From Rickettsiales bacterium (GTDB taxonomy: Bacteria; Pseudomonadota; Alphaproteobacteria; UBA8366): a stretch of DNA of 64,000 nt. The position numbers and the translations under genes are program-made. This document shows positions 17,326 through 27,303 of the stretch, in pieces. The notes beneath the pieces are model-generated. The model ran no database searches. It was not told the origin of the DNA and saw only the letters and a list, made by a program, of their open reading frames with translations. How positions within the stretch are numbered: position 1 is the stretch's first letter; every line of letters starts with the position of its first letter. Location: positions 14,114 through 78,113 of the forward strand of contig JAYPOZ010000005.1 of NCBI GenBank assembly GCA_038131165.1, given 5' to 3'.

Positions 17326-18834
17326 CTATTTCGCTTGCTTGAGTTGCGCCTCCATCCGGTCGCAGAGCGTCCGGATGACTTTCAGCCGTGCGTAGTGCTT
17401 GTTGTTGGCTTCGACCAGCGTCCACGGGGCGGCGACGGTGCTGGTCCGTTCGACCATCTCGTCGACGGTGGCCTCGTAGGCGTCCCAATTATCGCGGTTG
17501 CGCCAATCTTCGTCGGTGAGCTTCCAACTCTTATAGGGTGTGTTCTTGCGTTCCAGGAAGCGCCGCTCCTGTTCTTCCGGGTCGATATGAAGCCAGAACT
17601 TCGCCAGCACGATTCCGTGCTCGGTGAGCTGCTCCTCGAAATCGTTGATCTCGGCGAAGGCGCGGCGGTAGGTGTCCTCCGAGATCAAGTGTTCCACGTG
17701 CTCGACCAGGACCCTGCCGTACCAGCTCCGGTCGAAGATCGTAAACCGGCCGCTGCGGGCGATATGCCGCCAGAAGCGCCACAGATAATGATGGGCGCGT
17801 TCCTCGTCGGTCGGCGCGGCGATCGGAATGACCCGGTAATCGCGGGCGTCGAGCGCCGCCGTCAGGCGCCGGATCGCGCCGCCCTTGCCGCCGGCGTCCC
17901 AGCCTTCGAACACGAGGACCGTCGACATCGACTGCTCCTTCGCTTGCCGATAGAGGCCGTGCAGCCGGGCCCGTAGCTTCCGCAATTCCTTGCCGTATTG
18001 CTTGCGCGAGATCTCCTTCGAGAGGTCCAGGCACGACAAGACGCTGGCCGTGTGGTTTTGAGCTATCGCCGACGCTGCAGGTTTCTTGCGCCGCCGCTTC
18101 GTTTGTTCCGCCGCCGCCCGGGTGCGCGCGTCGATGTGTTCGCTCACCGCTTTGTGCAGAGTGGTCAACACGGTGTGGGCGCGGTAGGGCGGGTCCGCGG
18201 CTTCGACCAGGCACCAGGGAGACGCGGCGGTGCTCGTCCGCATGATGATCCGCTCCGACGTTTCGATGAACTTCTCGTAGCGCTTCCAGTTGTCCCAATC
18301 CTGGGAGGTGATCTTCCAATGGTGATAGGGGTCCTTTTCGAGTTTCTTCAGCCTCTCCTTTTGCGCCTTCTTGTCGAGATGCATCCAGAACTTGAGGATC
18401 AGCGCGCCGTCATCGGCGAGCGTGCGCTCGAAACTTGCGATCCGCTCGAGCCGGGCGTCCAGTTTCGCCCGGCCGATCCGGCGGTAGACCCGGTCGAGCA
18501 GGGGGGCCGTGTACCAGGCGCTCTGAAACAGCCCGATTTGGCCGGCCGCGGGCAGGTCGCGCCAGTAGCGCCAGAACTCGGGCCGTTCCCGTTCTTCGTC
18601 CGAGGGCCGGACATAGGCGCGGGTGACGATCCAGCGCGGGTCCATCCACTCGTTCAGGAGGTTGACGGATTCGCTCTTTCCCGCGCCATCGACTCCGGCA
18701 AACAGGACGATAACGGGGAAATCGCTGCGCCGCAGCGCCTGCTGCATCTCGACCATCGCCAAACGCAGGTCCGGCGCGATGGCGTTGAATTCCGGCTTCG
18801 AAAGCTTGCGGCCAAGTTCGGCGGCTTCAAACAT
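17326..18834 (-). CDS. pap: polyphosphate:AMP phosphotransferase (two-domain PPK2)
   Basis: Two PPK2 domains (AGVDGAGK; FEGWDAGGKGGAIRR, FDRSWYGRVLVE); start MFEAAELG after AAGGAGG. Confidence 0.92.
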   Translation of the reverse strand: MFEAAELGRKLSKPEFNAIAPDLRLAMVEMQQALRRSDFPVIVLFAGVDGAGKSESVNLLNEWMDPRWIVTRAYVRPSDEERERPEFWRYWRDLPAAGQIGLFQSAWYTAPLLDRVYRRIGRAKLDARLERIASFERTLADDGALILKFWMHLDKKAQKERLKKLEKDPYHHWKITSQDWDNWKRYEKFIETSERIIMRTSTAASPWCLVEAADPPYRAHTVLTTLHKAVSEHIDARTRAAAEQTKRRRKKPAASAIAQNHTASVLSCLDLSKEISRKQYGKELRKLRARLHGLYRQAKEQSMSTVLVFEGWDAGGKGGAIRRLTAALDARDYRVIPIAAPTDEERAHHYLWRFWRHIARSGRFTIFDRSWYGRVLVEHVEHLISEDTYRRAFAEINDFEEQLTEHGIVLAKFWLHIDPEEQERRFLERKNTPYKSWKLTDEDWRNRDNWDAYEATVDEMVERTSTVAAPWTLVEANNKHYARLKVIRTLCDRMEAQLKQAK

Positions 18835-18938
18835 GACGGCCTCCTTAACTGAATCCTTTTCATCCCTATCGTGCCAATCGGAACCGAAGGCGGGAAGAGA
18901 CGGATCGTCACAGGGTGCCCGCCGGATCGTGGGAAGCC

Positions 18939-19940
18939 TCAGCCGATCCGCGCGGCGATTCGGCCCACCCGCTCGATGGTCTCCAGCATCGGCGCCTGAC
19001 CCATGCCGACCCAGCTCATCCGCAGGATAAACGTGTCGATTCCGAGCTCGTCGCGATAACGCAGGAATTCGTCGGCTACTTCCGCCTCGTCGCCGACGAT
19101 GAAGCGGTCGACCATAAAGTCGTCGAAGGCATCGGCGAACGTGCGGGCTTTCTCGCCGCTGCCTGCCGCCCCCCAGGAGGCGTAGGCCTTGTATTTGTCG
19201 AGCAGAGATGGCCGGCATACGTCCAGCGCCTCGGCCCGCGTGCCGCGCACGCAGCACTCGCGGGTGATCGGCATGCTTTCCGGCATCGGCAATCCTGCTT
19301 CGGTCCGGGCCGCGCGGAACATCTCTATGCATTTGGCGACGCGCCCGATACTGTCCGTCGGCGCCGCCATCCAGGCATCGCCGAGCCGCGCCGCGCGCGC
19401 CACCGCCGCCGGGACCTGACCGCCCAGCCAGATCGGCGGTCCCCCGGGGCGCTTCGGCTTGATGCTGGTGCCGAGCCCGTCGATATTGAAATACTTGCCG
19501 TGATGATCGACCCGGTCCTCGGTCCACAAGCGGCGAATGACCTCGATCCCTTCCTCGAGCCGGCCGACCCGTTGATTGAAGGGCACGCCGAGGGTCTCGA
19601 ACTCCTCCTTGCGGTAGCCCATGCCGACGCCGAGGGTGAAGTTGCCCCCGGTGATCCAGTCGAGCGTCGCGGCCTCCTCGGCGACGACGGCCGGGTTCAG
19701 CATGGAGAGCAGGATCACCGCGGTGCCGAAGGTCATCCCCTCGCCCTCCGCCGCGAGCCGCGCCAGCAGCGGCATGGTCTGCATCATCTGCATCGGCGCC
19801 ACCAGATAATGCTGGCCCATCCAGACGGAAGAGAAGCCGCTGTCGCGGGCCACCCGGACCTGCTCCATCATGTTGTCCATCTCGGACGAGATGTCCGCGC
19901 CCTCCGGCCATTGGGTCGAAATATAGAGCCCGAATTTCAT
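18939..19940 (-). CDS. LLM class flavin-dependent oxidoreductase
   Basis: MKFGL start, WMGQHY, VAEEAATLDWITGG, GVGMGYRKEEF, PPIWLGG. Confidence 0.88.
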   Translation of the reverse strand: MKFGLYISTQWPEGADISSEMDNMMEQVRVARDSGFSSVWMGQHYLVAPMQMMQTMPLLARLAAEGEGMTFGTAVILLSMLNPAVVAEEAATLDWITGGNFTLGVGMGYRKEEFETLGVPFNQRVGRLEEGIEVIRRLWTEDRVDHHGKYFNIDGLGTSIKPKRPGGPPIWLGGQVPAAVARAARLGDAWMAAPTDSIGRVAKCIEMFRAARTEAGLPMPESMPITRECCVRGTRAEALDVCRPSLLDKYKAYASWGAAGSGEKARTFADAFDDFMVDRFIVGDEAEVADEFLRYRDELGIDTFILRMSWVGMGQAPMLETIERVGRIAARIG

Positions 19941-20039
19941 CGTCTTTACTTCCTTTGTCTGCGCGCGGTTCTTTGACTCGATATAGACCGCGCCTTATGG
20001 TCGAGCCACAACCTAAATCCACTAGGGAGACAGGTCGCC

Positions 20040-20738
20040 ATGGCCGAGAAATTTCATCTGATCAGTTCCGTTACCTGACCCTGGGTCCAGCGCGCCGTGA
20101 TCGTGCTGCGTACCAAGGAAGTCGATTTCGACGTTACCTACATCAATCTGCAGGAAAAGCCGGATTGGTTTCTCAAGATCTCGCCGCACGGCAAGGTGCC
20201 GGTGCTGAATGTCGACGGCCAGCCGCTGTTCGAATCCAACGCCATCGCCGAGTATCTCGACGAGGTCGTCGAGCCGCGCCTGCATCCGGAAGACCCGATC
20301 AAGCGCGCGCGCAACCGGGCTTGGACGGATTTCGTGCCCGATTTTTCGAAAGGGCTGAGCGCCGCTTACCGGCGCGAGACCCTGGCGGAAATGGAAGCAG
20401 GCCGCGAAGACGCGCTTAAGGTTCTCGGCAAGCTCGAGGAGGCGATCAAGACCGAGCGCGGCAACGACGGACCGTTCTTCAACGGCGACAAGATTAGCCT
20501 GGTCGATGCGGCCTATGCGCCGTTCTTCCAGCGCTTCATGATCGCCGAGGAGAAGTTGCAGACCGGGTTGCTCGACGGATTTCCGCTGGTGAAGGCCTGG
20601 TGCGGAGCCTTGCTCGCGTCGGAATTGGTCACCGGTTCGGTCGCCGATAGTTTCGTGCCGGACTTCAAGGCGGCGATGAAACGTTACGGGTATCACATCG
20701 GCACCCTGTTCGAGCAGGAAGCCGCCGCGGCGGAATAG
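20040..20738 (+). CDS. glutathione S-transferase family protein, probable selenoprotein (Sec13, UGA 20076-20078)
   Basis: ATG 20040 after AGGGAGA reads MAEKFHLISSVT-UGA-PWVQRAVIVL in frame with track ORF 20097..20738; UGA occupies the Cys of the CP[FYW]xxR GST motif; SPHGKVPVL and FESNAIAEYLDE present. Confidence 0.85.
20080..20118 (+). promoter_or_regulatory. putative bacterial SECIS hairpin of the GST gene
   Basis: CAGCGCG (20088-20094) pairs with CGTGCTG (20102-20108) around loop CCGTGAT; lower stem CCTGGGT/ACCAAGG immediately 3' of the UGA. Confidence 0.55.
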
Positions 20739-20747
20739 CAGGCGTTC

Positions 20748-20792
20748 CTCATTCCCCAACCCGCTCCCCCGACGGGAGAGGGTTGGGGTGAG
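20748..20792. repeat. REP-like GC-rich hairpin between convergent genes (may act as terminator)
   Basis: CTCA..CCCCAACCC-G-CTCCC / GGGAG-A-GGGTTGGGG-TGAG; same family as 55605 and 57703. Confidence 0.7.
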
Positions 20793-20797
20793 AGTTT

Positions 20798-21349
20798 CTA
20801 GCTTATCTGCTTCGACCAGGCCGCCAAAGACGCCAGGAGGGCGGTCAGGCGTTCCCCGGTGTCGCTGTCCGTCAGTTTGCCCGAGTCGTCGAACAGCTTG
20901 CCGGCGCCGGGCAGGAACAACTCCGGCTTGTTGATCGGCCGCATGTCGAGGAACACCATCACCTGGCGCAGATGATATTGCGCCCGCATGGTGCCGGAGG
21001 TGCCGCCCGAACAGCCGAGCATTGCGACCGGCTTGCCGGTGAAGGGATGATCCGGCGGACGCGAAACCCAGTCGACGGCGTTCTTCAGCACGCCCGGGAT
21101 CGAATAATTGTACTCCGGCGTGGCGAACAGCAGCGCATCCGCCGACTTGATCTGGGTCCGAAGGGTTTCGACGGAGGCCGGAAATCCCTTTTGATAGATG
21201 TCGTCGTCGTAGACCGGAATACCGGAGATATCGGCGATCTCCACCGTGACCCCGTCCGGCGCGTGTTCCGCGGCGGCGCGGAGTGCCGCCATGTTGAGCG
21301 ACGCTTTTCGCAGGCTGCCGCAAATACCCAAGATTTTAGTGTCCGCCAT
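20798..21349 (-). CDS. NADPH-dependent FMN reductase (ChrR/SsuE-like flavodoxin fold)
   Basis: GSLRKASLN, ATPEYNYSIPGVLKNAVDWVSR, RAQYHLRQ. Confidence 0.92.
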   Translation of the reverse strand: MADTKILGICGSLRKASLNMAALRAAAEHAPDGVTVEIADISGIPVYDDDIYQKGFPASVETLRTQIKSADALLFATPEYNYSIPGVLKNAVDWVSRPPDHPFTGKPVAMLGCSGGTSGTMRAQYHLRQVMVFLDMRPINKPELFLPGAGKLFDDSGKLTDSDTGERLTALLASLAAWSKQIS

Positions 21350-21469: not shown

Positions 21470-22306
21470 ATGGAAATCGGGGTCTTGTTCTTTGCCACCG
21501 ACTATTCGATCGATATCGCCGAACTCGCCGTCGAACTGGAGCAGCGGGGCTTCACGACCTTGCTGCAGCCGGAACACACGCATATTCCGGCGAGCCGCAA
21601 GACGCCGTGGGCCGGCGCCGGCGACCTGCCGCGCGAATACTACTGCACCTACGACCCCTTCGTGGCCCTTTCGTTTGCGGCGGCAGCGACGAAGACGCTG
21701 AAGATCGGTACCGGCATCTGTCTGGTGCCGCAACGCGATCCCATCGTCACCGCGAAGAACGTGGCCAGTATCGACAAGCTGTCGGGCGGGCGCTTCGTCT
21801 TTGGCATCGGCGGCGGATGGAACGTCGACGAGATGGAGAACCACGGGGTGCGGTACAAGACCCGCTTCAGGCAGATGCGGGAGAATATTCTCGCGATGAA
21901 GCAACTCTGGACCGAGGAGCAGGGCGAATTTCACGGCGAGTTCGTGAATTTCGATCCGGCGTTCTCCGACCCGAAGCCGACGCAGAAACCGCACCCGCCG
22001 ATCCTGCTCGGCGGCGAATCGGACCATACCCTGAAGCGGGTCGTCGAGTATTGCGACGGCTGGTTGCCGCGCGGGCGCGGCGGCTTCGATCCCGTCGAGG
22101 CGAAGCAGCGTCTGACCGCGATGGCCGAGGGAGCGGGCCGGGACCCGGCGTCGCTCTCGCTTACGGTCTTCGGCGCCCCCGCCGACCGGGCCGAGCTCGA
22201 CAAATACCGGGCCGCCGGGATCGACGGCGCCTTGCTGCGGATGCCGACGGAAGACCGCGACAGCTGCATGAAGTTGCTCGAGGAATTCACGCCGCTGGTC
22301 AACTGA
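21470..22306 (+). CDS. LLM class (probably F420-dependent) oxidoreductase, paralog of 15433..16272
   Basis: PEHTHIPASR, YDPFVAL, DKLSGGRFVFGIGGGWN, PHPPILLGG. Confidence 0.9.
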   Translation: MEIGVLFFATDYSIDIAELAVELEQRGFTTLLQPEHTHIPASRKTPWAGAGDLPREYYCTYDPFVALSFAAAATKTLKIGTGICLVPQRDPIVTAKNVASIDKLSGGRFVFGIGGGWNVDEMENHGVRYKTRFRQMRENILAMKQLWTEEQGEFHGEFVNFDPAFSDPKPTQKPHPPILLGGESDHTLKRVVEYCDGWLPRGRGGFDPVEAKQRLTAMAEGAGRDPASLSLTVFGAPADRAELDKYRAAGIDGALLRMPTEDRDSCMKLLEEFTPLVN

Positions 22307-22316
22307 GGTTAGAGTC

Positions 22317-23018
22317 ATGGCAGACGCCGCGCAGCTGGATCGAAGCTATCATTTCATTCTCGGATTCATCGTCGAGAATGGAGTGGCCCCGCATTACACC
22401 GAGCTGGCGCGGGAATTCGGGGTCTCTCCCGCCGAAGGGCGTGAACTGCTGCATGAGCTCATGTCGCAGGCCCTGCCCAACTGGCTTCATCCCGGAACCG
22501 ACCTGATCGCCTCCTTCGCGCCTTTCAACAACCTGCCGACGCATTATCGGGTCACCGTCGACGGGGAGCGGAAATGGTATGCGCAATGCGGTCTCGAGGC
22601 GACCGCGATTTCCTGGCTGTTTCCGGGCAAGACCGTGGAGATCGAAGCGCCATGCCTGCAGTCGGGCGCCGAAATGCGGGTCGTCTTCCGGGACGGCGTG
22701 CTGGAGGATACGGCGCCGGAAGGCATCCATTTCTACGTCACCCAGCCGATCAAAAAGTGGCATAACGATATGCCGTTTGCCTGAGCGAACATGAACCTCT
22801 TTCGGTCGAAAGAGGATGCCTTGAAGTGGTCGGGGTTCGTTGCGGGAACGGAGGCCGGCGTGCTGAGCCTGGCGCAGGCGGCCGCGGTGATGAGCACGCC
22901 GCGTCACAGCGCGCGGCTCAACGGCAGCTACGTCTCGTCGCGCCCGGACTTCACGCCGCGCTTCGTCGAAAAGCTGATGGAGGTCACCGGCGGTTCGCAA
23001 TATTGGGACCCGCGCTGA
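22317..23018 (+). CDS. MerB (organomercurial lyase)-like protein, probable selenoprotein (Sec156, UGA 22782-22784)
   Basis: Track ORFs 22317..22784 and 22791..23018 are in the same frame (TGA GCG AAC ATG); motifs WYAQCGLEA, APCLQSG and FA-U-ANMNLFRS parallel MerB WCALD, HCAATG and FCCHVHFFAS; SECIS-like hairpin follows. Confidence 0.82.
22796..22815 (+). promoter_or_regulatory. putative bacterial SECIS hairpin of the MerB-like gene
   Basis: CCTCTTTC-GGTC-GAAAGAGG, a perfect 8-bp stem with GGUC loop beginning 11 nt after the UGA. Confidence 0.75.
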
Positions 23019-23033: not shown

Positions 23034-23087
23034 TTCCTTCCAGGATACGAACTTCACGAAGTTCTTAATTTCGTATCCTGGAAGGAA
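23034..23087. repeat. 18-bp perfect inverted repeat with nested alternative hairpin
   Basis: TTCCTTCCAGGATACGAA (23034-23051) / TTCGTATCCTGGAAGGAA (23070-23087); inner GAACTTC-AC-GAAGTTC. Confidence 0.8.
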
Positions 23088-23104: not shown

Positions 23105-24553
23105 ATGGCGATCACGCATTTTTCAAAGGTGGACTGGATCGTCGTTTGGGACGAGGGCCGACAGGGCCATGCGTATCTGACGGGCGGCGATCTCGTCTTC
23201 GAGGGCAACACGGTCACCCATGTCGGCGCCGGCTACGACGGCCCCGCCGACACCGTGATCGCCGGCGCCGGGCTGTGCCTCCTGCCGGGTTTCGTCGACA
23301 TTCACGCGCACCCGGCGACCGAGGTATTCTACCGCGGACTGCGCGAGGATCACAGCGTTCCCGAACATTACATGAGCGGTTTGTACGAGCGGTCCTGCGC
23401 CTATTCGGCGCATATCGACCGGGACCTGCTGCCTTACGGAGCGGAGGTTTCCTATGCGGAACTGATGCTGAGCGGCGTGACCACGCTGGTCGACATCACG
23501 GCCCCCTATCCGGGCTGGATCGACGTGATGGCGCGCTCCGGCCTTCGGATGTACGCGGCGCCCACCTTCGAGACCTCGCGCTGGACCCGCGACAACGTCC
23601 ATCAGCTGAAATTCATCGAGGACGTGCAAAAAGGCGAGCAGGGATTTGCCGCCGCGCTGGAGGTGATCGACGCGGCGCGCGCGCACCCGAGCGGCCGTCT
23701 CGACGGGATCGTCTCGCCGTCGACCATCGACAAGGTGACGCCTGACCTGCTGGTCGCCAGCCATGCGGAGGCGAAGAAGCGCGGACTGCCCTGGACGACC
23801 CACACCAGCCAATCGGTGCTGGAATTCAATATCATGGTGGAGCGCCACGGGATGACGCCGATCCAGTTCCTCGCCGAGCGCGGCCTGCTCGGCAAAGGGA
23901 CGATCCTCGGCCATGCGATTCTGCCGGACGACAGTTCCTGGATCGGCTGGCACAGCCGCACCGATGTGGCATTGCTCGGCGACAGCGGCACCGCCGTGGC
24001 GCATTGCCCGACCCCGTTCATGCGGTACGGCACGGTCATGGAAAGCTTCGGTCGCTATCGCGACGCCGGCGTTGTGCTCGGCATCGGCACCGACACGATC
24101 CCCCATAATTTCATCGAAGACATGCGCTCGGCGGCGATCCTGGGCCGGGTCGCGGCGCACAGCGGGAAAACAGCCTCGACAGGCGATGTGTTTCATGCCG
24201 GCACGGCGGGCGGCGCCAAGGCCTTGATGCGCGACGATATCGGCCGCCTCGCGGTCGGATCGAAAGCCGATATCGTGGTCGTGGACTGCACCCACCCGAT
24301 GATGCTGCCGTCGCGCGATCCGCTGGCCTGCCTGATCCATTCGGCCGCCGACCGCGCGGTCAAGGACGTGTATATCGACGGCCGGCAGGTGGTGAAGGAC
24401 CGACAGGTGCTGACGCTCGACCGTCAGGCGGCGGCGGAGCGCATTGTCGCGGGACAGGTGCGGATGGAGGCGGCGGTTGCGGGAACCGATTTCTTGGGGC
24501 GCTCAAGCCGAGAGATCGCGCCGCTGTCGCTGCCGCCGGCGGGCGTAGGCTAG
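23105..24553 (+). CDS. metal-dependent amidohydrolase (AtzA/SsnA-like deaminase/chlorohydrolase)
   Basis: PGFVDIHAH, TTHTSQS, ILGH, VAHCP, GIGTD, GSKADIV. Confidence 0.9.
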   Translation: MAITHFSKVDWIVVWDEGRQGHAYLTGGDLVFEGNTVTHVGAGYDGPADTVIAGAGLCLLPGFVDIHAHPATEVFYRGLREDHSVPEHYMSGLYERSCAYSAHIDRDLLPYGAEVSYAELMLSGVTTLVDITAPYPGWIDVMARSGLRMYAAPTFETSRWTRDNVHQLKFIEDVQKGEQGFAAALEVIDAARAHPSGRLDGIVSPSTIDKVTPDLLVASHAEAKKRGLPWTTHTSQSVLEFNIMVERHGMTPIQFLAERGLLGKGTILGHAILPDDSSWIGWHSRTDVALLGDSGTAVAHCPTPFMRYGTVMESFGRYRDAGVVLGIGTDTIPHNFIEDMRSAAILGRVAAHSGKTASTGDVFHAGTAGGAKALMRDDIGRLAVGSKADIVVVDCTHPMMLPSRDPLACLIHSAADRAVKDVYIDGRQVVKDRQVLTLDRQAAAERIVAGQVRMEAAVAGTDFLGRSSREIAPLSLPPAGVG

Positions 24554-25888: not shown

Positions 25889-25996
25889 GAAGGTGCGCGC
25901 GCGCTAGATTGGCGCCGGCCTCCCCGTCGCCCTAGATGTCTATCAGGAAGGGGCCGCCATGCGCGGTCTTGTTTGGGCATTTGCAGGAGGGTCGCC

Positions 25997-26374
25997 ATGC
26001 GCGTCGTCACGTTGAAGGATATTCCGGAAATCGATCTTGGAGAGGCCGTGCCGGTCCCTGGTTGGACCGGCGGCGAAGTGCGCCGCTCGCGGCAGAACAT
26101 TATCGAGCCGGGCGACTCCGAGAATTACAATTGCAGCGTCGTCAATTTCACCAAGGGCTCGACCACCGGCTGGCACGTTCACGACTGCGACCAGATCCTC
26201 GTGGTGGTGCATGGCTCGGGGATCGTCGCCACCGAGACGGAAGAGCGCGAGATCAACGTCGGCGACGTCGTTCACGTCAAGGCGGGCGAGAATCACTGGC
26301 ACGGCGCCAAGGCCGATACGGTGATGGGGCATATCACCGTGACCCTGCGCGGCAGCAAAGCCGTCTTCGCCTAA
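25997..26374 (+). CDS. cupin domain protein
   Basis: TGWHVHDCDQILVV...GDVV...ENHWHGA; AGGAGG RBS before ATG 25997. Confidence 0.87.
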   Translation: MRVVTLKDIPEIDLGEAVPVPGWTGGEVRRSRQNIIEPGDSENYNCSVVNFTKGSTTGWHVHDCDQILVVVHGSGIVATETEEREINVGDVVHVKAGENHWHGAKADTVMGHITVTLRGSKAVFA

Positions 26375-26385
26375 GGGCCGCAAGG

Positions 26386-27303
26386 ATGAAAGCCGGCGTC
26401 AATCTGATCAACTTCGGCCCTTCGGCCAATCCCGTGAACCTGCGCCGCTGGGTGCGCGTCGTCGAAGGGTTGGGGTTTCACTCGCTGCTGACCTCGGACC
26501 ATATCGCGGTGACGCCCGATGTCTCTTCGCGCTATCCGGCGCCGCTCTACGAGCCGATCAGCACCCTCGGCTGGCTGGCGGGTATTACCGACAGGATCGA
26601 GATCGGCACCACGGTCATCATCGTGCCGTATCGCAGCCCGCTGGAGACCGCCCGGGCGCTGGCCAATATCGACCAGCTCAGCGGCGGGCGCCTCATCTTC
26701 GGCGTCGGCGTCGGCTGGGCGCAGGAGGAATTCGCGGCACTCGGGCTCGACTACCGCAAGCGCGGCGCGATGACCGACGAGTATCTGGCCGCGATCAAGC
26801 AGTTGTGGACGGAGGACGTAGCCAGCTTCGAGGGCGCCTACGTGCGTTACAGCGGCGTCGATACGGCGCCGCGCCCGGTGCGCCAACCGCACCCGCCGAT
26901 CTGGGTCGGCGGCTCGAGCGACGCCGCGCTGCGCCGCGCCATCCGGCTCGGCGACGCCTGGCACCCGATCCGCATCCGCGAAGAGGGACTGCGCAAGGAG
27001 GGCATTCCCCGACTGCAGGCATTGGCGGCGGAAGAGGGCCTGCCGGTGCCGGCGCTCTGTCCGCGCATCCGGTTGCGCCTGCTGGAGACGCCGGCGGACG
27101 ACGCGACCCGGGTGATGGGCGAAGGCACCGCCGATCAGGTGCACCGCGATCTTGCCGCGCTCGAGGAGATGGGCTGCGCGCATGTCCTGCTGGACACCTA
27201 TTTCGAGGACATCGAAGCGACCCGCAATGTCGAGGCGTCGTGGCGCATGCTGGCGACGGTGGCTGAGCGGATGCTGGACCTCGACGGCGAGTGCGTGCGC
27301 TAG
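26386..27303 (+). CDS. LLM class (probably F420-dependent) oxidoreductase
   Basis: LTSDHIAV, DQLSGGRLIFGVGVGW, PHPPIWVGG; start MKAGVNL. Confidence 0.88.
   Translation: MKAGVNLINFGPSANPVNLRRWVRVVEGLGFHSLLTSDHIAVTPDVSSRYPAPLYEPISTLGWLAGITDRIEIGTTVIIVPYRSPLETARALANIDQLSGGRLIFGVGVGWAQEEFAALGLDYRKRGAMTDEYLAAIKQLWTEDVASFEGAYVRYSGVDTAPRPVRQPHPPIWVGGSSDAALRRAIRLGDAWHPIRIREEGLRKEGIPRLQALAAEEGLPVPALCPRIRLRLLETPADDATRVMGEGTADQVHRDLAALEEMGCAHVLLDTYFEDIEATRNVEASWRMLATVAERMLDLDGECVR

Follow-up and report, generated by a model that had tools for sequence, protein, structure and literature searches.

Positions 22317-23018 of the window, the 64,000-nucleotide stretch of contig JAYPOZ010000005.1 from a Rickettsiales bacterium that was analysed here, very likely form a single gene for a selenoprotein of the MerB fold, with a MerB-like catalytic triad and protonolysis as its putative chemistry. 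At the centre of this proposal stands an in-frame UGA at 22782-22784, which almost certainly encodes selenocysteine (Sec) and would thereby make the gene a selenoprotein gene. Of the enzymes that cleave mercury-carbon bonds, MerB is, to our knowledge, the only one well understood. Going beyond the original prediction, in which this feature is absent, the comparison of homologs points to a second Sec, at the first catalytic cysteine, in most members of the family.

One gene across an in-frame UGA

Calling with translation table 11 yields two open reading frames (ORFs), 22317..22784 (155 codons) and 22791..23018, which lie in the same frame on the plus strand with the TGA at 22782-22784 between them, the second beginning at the first in-frame ATG past that TGA. 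The frame stays open for 77 further codons, up to a TGA at 23016-23018, and reading through gives a product of 233 residues with the junction ...DMPFA-U-ANMNLFRS.... The joining of these two ORFs by a UGA into one 233-residue protein, as first proposed, is thus borne out by sequence and translation. The features of the gene are as follows:

22317..23018, plus strand: predicted complete selenoprotein gene, 233 codons and the terminal TGA (from the ORFs, read-through translation, Pfam, AlphaFold2 and Foldseek)
22305..22308, plus strand: GAGG ribosome-binding motif, 8 nt 5' of the ATG at 22317 (read from the sequence)
22587..22589, plus strand: TGC, Cys91, equivalent of MerB Cys96 (PDB alignment, codon table)
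22596..22598, plus strand: GAG, Glu94, at the position of the MerB proton donor Asp99 (PDB alignment)
22653..22655, plus strand: TGC, Cys113, an invariant Cys (codon table of the loci), which we take to be the counterpart of the structural Cys117 of MerB
22782..22784, plus strand: in-frame TGA, read here as Sec156, equivalent of MerB Cys159 (locus codons, homologs, PDB alignment)
22785..22815, plus strand: predicted Sec insertion sequence (SECIS) element, an 11-nt spacer, an 8-bp stem and a GGUC apical loop (fold, covariation, frozen third codon positions)

The Pfam model for MerB (PF03243) covers residues 72-190 with 72.9 bits against a cut-off of 27 (E 3e-20), and in doing so runs straight through the UGA at residue 156, the alignment of the read-through protein to this family being one of the checks originally proposed; a profile search finds this to be the sole PF03243 gene in its genome. 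A sequence search of the PDB returns MerB2 and MerB as the best matches, with residue 156 aligned to MerB Cys159 and to the corresponding MerB2 Cys, Cys91 to Cys96, and Glu94 to Asp99, and the motif alignment originally drawn holds up in these terms (QCGLE against WCALD; FA-U-A against F-CC in MerB and T-C-K in MerB2). An AlphaFold2 model, for which an alignment of 59 sequences was used, takes in all 233 residues, including the 77 after the TGA, with a mean confidence (pLDDT) of 96.6 and a predicted template-modelling (TM) score of 0.91, and its predicted architecture is an N-terminal winged-helix part followed by a catalytic core. When the model was compared with the PDB by Foldseek, all 11 chains matched at E <= 0.001 were MerB or MerB2 (target-normalised TM scores 0.50-0.66), with no thioredoxin-like fold among the matches. 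Because the Pfam match, the PDB alignment, the model and the Foldseek matches all span the TGA, the two ORFs are parts of one domain, and a product stopping at residue 155 would therefore be left without one of its two metal-binding catalytic positions.

The codons of homologous loci bear directly on how the UGA is read. A collection of species-representative genomes holds 313 stretches with a relative, the best 80 of which were examined, making 81 loci with the window. The original prediction had asked what homologs carry at residue 156, and none was found to end there in the manner of an ordinary stop: codon 156 is TGA in 81/81 loci, never TAA or TAG, with the frame continuing beyond it, and among distant full-length homologs (22-34% identity) the residue is Cys in 14/14, position 91 being Cys in 13/14. 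Codon 94 is GAA or GAG, and hence Glu, in all 81 loci, and codon 113 is TGC or TGT, and hence Cys, in all 81 as well. At codon 91, on the other hand, 16 loci (the window included) have TGC and 65 have TGA. Judged by these codons, the family appears to have one-Sec (C..U) and two-Sec (U..U) forms, with position 91 as an internal Cys/Sec pair. Metagenomes give the same picture. At least 218 metagenome stretches carry a relative, 80 loci were kept and 79 examined (a partial match, L181, being left out), and both codons are TGA in 78 of the 79, the second site of the remaining one having been missed by the motif search. As a separate observation, two genomes (G206 and G305) hold two copies each of the two-Sec gene, 37-48% identical to the query, which by sequence would represent paralogous subfamilies within the Sec clade.

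Immediately after the UGA, an 11-nt spacer (22785-22795) leads into a hairpin with the arms CCTCTTTC (22796-22803) and GAAAGAGG (22808-22815) closed by the loop GGTC (22804-22807). The perfect GGTC-loop hairpin that had been reported to start 11 nt past the UGA is accordingly found at 22796-22815. The whole predicted element spans codons 157-167, with the hairpin itself in codons 161-165 (L-F-R-S-K/E), and it resembles the SECIS of E. coli fdhF, which has a GGUC loop at a spacing of about 11 nt. Of the eight stem pairs, seven are kept across the 81 sequences, the eighth (outer) pair being specific to the window's subgroup. Compensatory two-sided changes occur at three stem pairs (CG/UA 9, CG/UA 9 and CG/GC/AU 4+2), the last of these being the closing pair, which shows no mismatch. 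The third positions of hairpin codons 161-165 are nearly frozen, with entropies of 0.00, 0.50, 0.10, 0.45 and 0.28 against ~1.5 gene-wide; Leu161 is CTC in 68/81 loci and Arg163 is CGG in 74/81. Codon periodicity persists past the TGA (entropies by codon position of 1.04/0.86/1.51), which argues that the downstream frame is translated and under purifying selection.

Here, too, the second site is instructive. Where codon 91 is TGA (65 loci), it is followed by a hairpin of its own, set off by 11 nt and made of a 6-bp stem with a GGUCU loop, which is 99% paired and shows 14 GC/CG swaps at the outer pair. The same columns in the 16 Cys91 loci, the window among them, are 56% paired, which is the level of shuffled sequence. 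That this hairpin exists exactly where the TGA exists is strong internal evidence for SECIS function. At the level of sequence, then, the comparative data settle that the arrangement of TGA and hairpin is not a chance one.

The original prediction had further named selA, selB, selC and selD as genes to look for, and all four are in the window's genome (4.82 Mb in 253 contigs, 95.7% complete, with an estimated contamination of 4.88%). Profile matches to selD (319 bits), selB (460) and selA (590) all lie above their curated cut-offs, with selA adjoining selB. A search of the genome with Rfam models for tRNA-Sec returned tRNA-Ser genes only; ARAGORN, run over the whole genome, then found a tRNA-SeC with the anticodon tca (G000:C57:21588-21685). 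The selD match (L001, G000:C52:11089-12009) sits in an open frame of 700 residues, far above the usual length of SelD, which suggests a fusion with another domain.

A crude genome-wide scan for an in-frame TGA with a downstream hairpin gave 198 loose candidates, only two of which show, 11-12 nt past the TGA, a stem of 8 bp or more capped by a GGTC loop: the window gene and a peroxiredoxin-like gene. The latter (L118, G000:C45:10622-11206, minus strand) is of the AhpC/TSA type and carries LDW-U-PYC as its motif; the TGA, at residue 85, falls inside the Pfam domain of residues 47-172, and an 8-bp GGTC-loop hairpin lies 12 nt past the TGA. Pfam was run on 20 of the 198 candidates, with one true selenoprotein (L118), two with the domain wholly 3' of the TGA and 17 without a family. 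The two in the middle category, the CbiJ and DctQ candidates, were set aside as ordinary genes, their Pfam domains being wholly downstream of the TGA. No TGA was found inside any FdhA-like match in this genome, a search directed at a Sec-type formate dehydrogenase. As the window gene shows, the organism would keep its Sec machinery for at least two proteins.

Proposed chemistry and competing explanations

If the UGA is read in this way, decoding would proceed through the genome's own SelA, SelB, SelC and SelD, directed by the SECIS element in the codons that follow. Cys91, Glu94 and Sec156 would then stand in the places of MerB Cys96, Asp99 and Cys159, and from the alignments and the model these three residues probably serve catalysis or metal binding. 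In the mechanism that we propose, a soft metal(loid) centre would be bound between the Cys91 thiolate and the Sec156 selenolate, and the Glu94 carboxylate would protonate the carbon leaving group, amounting to protonolysis of a metal(loid)-carbon bond. Sec has a low pKa and is soft, and would here provide a permanently ionised ligand. The softer and already ionised selenolate would thus take the place of a Cys that MerB must first deprotonate, and would be the more activating of the two. Whether the enzyme is specifically a metal(loid)-carbon lyase is, from this analysis, an evenly balanced question.

Several observations weigh against this reading, some of them touching the decoding and others the chemistry. 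The folding energy of the 76-nt region has a z of -1.73, with 12 of 200 shuffles folding equally well; since the energy of the hairpin alone is not significant, the case was rested on the comparative evidence. An Rfam scan of 22700-22900 (E <= 10) returned one chance match, to GABA3, and no SECIS family, a null result that is uninformative, as there are few curated bacterial SECIS models. The sel genes are on contigs other than that of the window, and their linkage to it rests on binning. As for the chemistry, the proton-donor position holds Glu, not Asp, and the NCBIfam MerB equivalogs, NF009710 and NF033555, score far below their cut-offs (26.4 against 193 bits and 22.4 against 200). The best MerA match in the window's genome reaches 383 bits, below the cut-off of 454, and a search of the same genome for MerT found none. 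Selenolate-bound Hg(II) would, moreover, be hard to release without a partner. Finally, when the ORFs within +/-4 kb of the 81 loci were clustered with the target gene masked, no neighbour family appeared in more than 7 of the 81; the neighbourhood is not conserved, and the context therefore names no substrate.

Of the competing explanations, the one that survives best keeps the selenoprotein and gives up the lyase. Cys91 and Sec156 (Sec and Sec in most homologs) would form a redox pair that cycles as a selenenylsulfide or diselenide, or would serve to bind and hand off a soft metal such as Hg, Cu, Cd or As. Prokaryotic selenoproteins are mostly redox proteins, according to two reviews (PMC9312934; PMC13188914), there is no MerA or MerT partner to accept a metal product, the carboxylate is Glu instead of the MerB Asp, the gene context is variable, and the U/U forms have further conserved cysteines in the motifs AVCW and CLDCG. 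It is nevertheless exactly the catalytic triad of MerB that makes up the conserved trio, with the acid invariant in 81/81 loci; the fold neighbours are MerB and MerB2 only, with no thioredoxin-like fold; and the spacing is not of the CxxC/UxxC type. We regard this explanation as possible but on the unlikely side.

The reading of the gene as a MerB-fold selenoprotein has also to be set against simpler accounts of the TGA. Were it an ordinary stop, the locus would encode a truncated MerB-like protein of 155 residues, with either a separate 75-residue protein starting at the ATG at 22791 or an untranslated remainder, and it is true that table-11 calling yields exactly these two ORFs, that the ATG lies 6 nt past the TGA and that the public gene calls of close homologs all end here. 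Codon 159, the would-be start, is however ATC or ATT, and no start codon, in 13 of the 81 loci. An ordinary stop would also leave without explanation a site that is TGA in 81/81 (and a second in 65/65) and never TAA or TAG, distant homologs with Cys at the same site, and a covarying hairpin whose counterpart at site 91 is present only where a TGA is. A product cut short at the TGA would be missing its second catalytic residue, and the modelled MerB fold would require both parts. Taken together these points make the ordinary stop highly improbable.

The public records deserve a closer look in this connection. A word-indexed protein search gave 303 relatives; among the 120 listed, 106 are of 153-156 residues and end right before the TGA position, with termini such as PFA, PFS and PFT. 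Cluster representatives, searched exhaustively with HMMER, add pieces of 90-91, 63 and 74-77 residues, corresponding to the segments between or after the two TGAs. Nine proteins are full length and carry Trp at both 91 and 156 (P0017, P0029-P0031, P0052, P0064, P0087, P0107 and P0120), and it is these that lend some colour to the last explanation, in which the TGA is recoded as Trp or another standard residue, or the locus is a pseudogene or an assembly error. P0030, for instance, matches the translation of metagenome locus L137 (1501-2205) at every residue but 91 and 156, which are TGA in the DNA; the Trp residues are therefore a gene-calling artefact, and the Trp/Trp homologs, first taken as a possible refutation of Sec, were rejected as such. 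TGA, furthermore, terminates the largest share of long ORFs in the window's genome (1147 of the 2563 that reach 400 codons, counted crudely and with shadow frames among them) and is likewise the stop of this gene and of the LLM gene before it, and the conservation of TGA and frame across 160 loci excludes error and decay alike, leaving this explanation with next to no probability. The W/W records, which come from public metagenome gene calls of two-Sec homologs and are full length but wrong, could mislead comparisons of Cys and Sec forms.

Neighbourhood and distribution

The gene is immediately flanked by two others:

21470..22306, plus strand: upstream F420-dependent LLM-class oxidoreductase (TIGR03619, 260 bits), ending 10 bp before the gene
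23105..24553, plus strand: downstream amidohydrolase of the chlorohydrolase/deaminase type (PRK06151, 334 bits, below the cut-off of 416)

Family searches of the neighbours, which also include a histidine kinase and a polyphosphate kinase 2 (PPK2), uphold both of the original statements on context, namely the absence of merA, merR and merT from the vicinity and the distance of 10 bp between the LLM oxidoreductase gene and this one. The GAGG motif at 22305-22308 overlaps the stop TGA (22304-22306) of the LLM gene, an arrangement that suggests operon coupling of the two genes. The order of LLM gene, selenoprotein gene and amidohydrolase gene is found, among the 81 loci, only in the window and its closest relatives, L022 and L024; the L022 copy is, as it happens, flanked by two LLM genes as well.

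Some further features of the surroundings may be recorded. In the 86-bp gap before the amidohydrolase gene, a 21-nt inverted repeat (23034-23054 and 23067-23087, 95% complementary, with 12 nt between) could be a terminator or attenuator hairpin or an operator; one 18-nt arm of it recurs once in the genome (C80, position 6376). A second luciferase-like gene (PF00296) lies 3 kb downstream on the plus strand (25936-27303), its domain starting only at residue 165 of a 455-residue ORF, which by its sequence appears to have either a long N-terminal extension or a mis-set start. On the minus strand, an unusually long ORF of 898 residues (17326-20022) contains two PPK2 stretches, which makes it a duplicated PPK2, and the 433-residue ORF beside it (20022-21323) matches no Pfam family.

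A quick maximum-likelihood tree, for which approximate likelihood-ratio support (SH-aLRT) is the only measure and in which the outgroup branches are very long, groups the window with two loci from metagenome-assembled genomes (MAGs) titled Alphaproteobacteria and Rickettsiales (SH-aLRT 96). Thirteen of the 16 C..U forms make up one group in it, of alpha- and betaproteobacterial and Sulfotelmatobacter loci, and Thermodesulfobacteriota supply most of the U..U forms, Chloroflexota and others only a few. The family occurs also in MAGs titled Alpha- and Betaproteobacteria, Nitrospinota and Acidobacteriota. At least three changes between C..U and U..U are needed on this tree, and with outgroup branches of such length the direction of change at position 91 is not fixed.

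Among 41 genomes related to that of the window, seven have the gene, with exactly one TGA each. Of 301 genomes sampled from the phylum to which a U..U carrier belongs, 29 have it, and there 29 of 31 matches have exactly two TGAs. One genome (G185) has a two-TGA gene and no selA match at E <= 1e-80, probably owing to an assembly gap.

The distribution also offers a lead towards mercury. HgcA is present in all three of the U/U genomes picked by hand, and across the sample of 301 it is found in 17 of 29 carriers of the gene against 75 of 272 non-carriers (odds ratio 3.7, Fisher p = 0.001). As selA is present in 280 of the 301 genomes, the Sec trait is not a confounder of this association. When only genomes of at least 4 Mb are considered, HgcA is in 14 of 24 carriers and 20 of 45 non-carriers (odds ratio 1.75, p = 0.32), and the window's genome itself has no HgcA match. 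With related genomes not being independent of one another, a link of the gene to mercury methylation is a weak lead.

Relation to SaoL, MerB and cysteine homologs

A Sec-bearing relative of MerB, SaoL, was recognised in 2022 (10.1101/2022.07.06.499078), and because this MerB-like selenoprotein is published, the window gene is not of a categorically new kind. SaoL (NF040728) is described there as a selenoprotein and MerB-like organometallic lyase, encoded in the SAO locus of anaerobes such as Clostridioides difficile, with C99, D102 and U162 corresponding to MerB C96, D99 and C159, a Cys-Sec dipeptide, an Asp as the acid, a nine-gene locus (with SaoA/B/P/X/E/C/T/D) and a strictly anaerobic distribution (10.1101/2022.07.06.499078). 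In the portions available of two reviews, MerB-like selenoproteins are represented by the SaoL entry only (PMC9312934; PMC13188914). For its entry "alkylmercury lyase MerB-like", the 2022 review cites the GOS study (PMC2398784) and Peng 2016 (PMC5029168). That term is absent from the main texts of both, though their supplements may hold an earlier listing of the family.

SaoL and the window protein are alike in matching Pfam MerB, in having Sec at the position of MerB Cys159 and database records truncated at the UGA, and in placing an acidic residue three positions on from the first catalytic Cys. The differences are nonetheless considerable. The SaoL model gives the window protein 35.5 bits against a cut-off of 140, aligning residues 61-139 only, and 58 of 59 family members match it at E <= 0.001 (best E 3.4e-23). 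No model in NCBIfam release 20.0 recognises the family, the matches to SaoL and MerB being sub-threshold only. SaoL has the dipeptide CU, whereas residue 155 in the window family is Ala, Ser or Thr in 81/81 loci (Ala in the window); the acid is Asp in SaoL and Glu in the window family; and the truncated form of SaoL is of ~197 residues and ends in Cys, where that of the window family is of 155 residues and ends in Ala, Ser or Thr. At the first catalytic position, SaoL has Cys, while a second Sec is predicted there in 65 of the 80 homolog loci.

SaoL sits in its SAO neighbourhood and the window gene among unrelated neighbours. A search of the window's genome finds no SaoP above cut-off and no match to SaoB, though the SaoB search matched no control genome either. 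With no SAO locus, a sub-threshold SaoL score and other neighbours, the context is indeed different from that of the clostridial MerB-like selenoproteins, as the original prediction had it. Since neither a mer operon nor an SAO locus is found with the gene, classic organomercurial resistance is unlikely in the window's genome. That both SaoL and the window family have Sec at the position of MerB Cys159 could reflect either common descent or convergence. On the sequence evidence as a whole, the window family is distinct from and far more widespread than SaoL, with a two-Sec majority form that current models and gene calls have missed.

A bolder proposal, which we consider doubtful, would make of this second and far more widespread MerB-like selenoprotein family a selenium-boosted, mer-independent metal(loid)-carbon lyase that descends from an ancestral diselenol-plus-Glu site. 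Its members might then, for example, demethylate methylmercury in anaerobes that have no mer operon, and the single-Sec forms derived from them would have been transferred to aerobic proteobacteria like the window's organism, or kept by them. If this were true, a class of organometal-transforming enzymes would lie hidden behind gene calls that are truncated or mistranslated with Trp. With correct annotation of the family, the prokaryotic selenoproteome would gain a multi-Sec enzyme. The family offers a natural test of the role of selenium at a metal-binding catalytic site, as well as candidate enzymes that might turn over organometal(loid)s without mer genes in sediments, groundwater and soil.

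The organomercurial lyase MerB (plasmid R831b; PDB 3F0O, 3F0P and 1S6L) and MerB2 (5C17) share the Pfam family and the fold of the window protein (Foldseek E 6e-10, TM 0.57-0.66), and both metal-binding Cys positions and the acidic position align, yet identity is only ~17-18%. MerB Cys159 becomes the predicted Sec, a residue of analogous chemistry though not the one that marks the MerB family, and MerB Asp99 becomes Glu in the window protein, MerB2 having Ser at the acid position; the window model has extra C-terminal helices (195-224) that MerB and MerB2 lack; and the merA, merT and merR context of MerB is not found around the window gene. The Cys-containing MerB-like proteins (P0128, P0129 and P0132 among them; 22-34% identical) are full length, of the same architecture, and carry Cys at both 91 and 156, as expected of the Cys counterparts of a selenoprotein. 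They have no UGA and fall on long branches outside the Sec clade.

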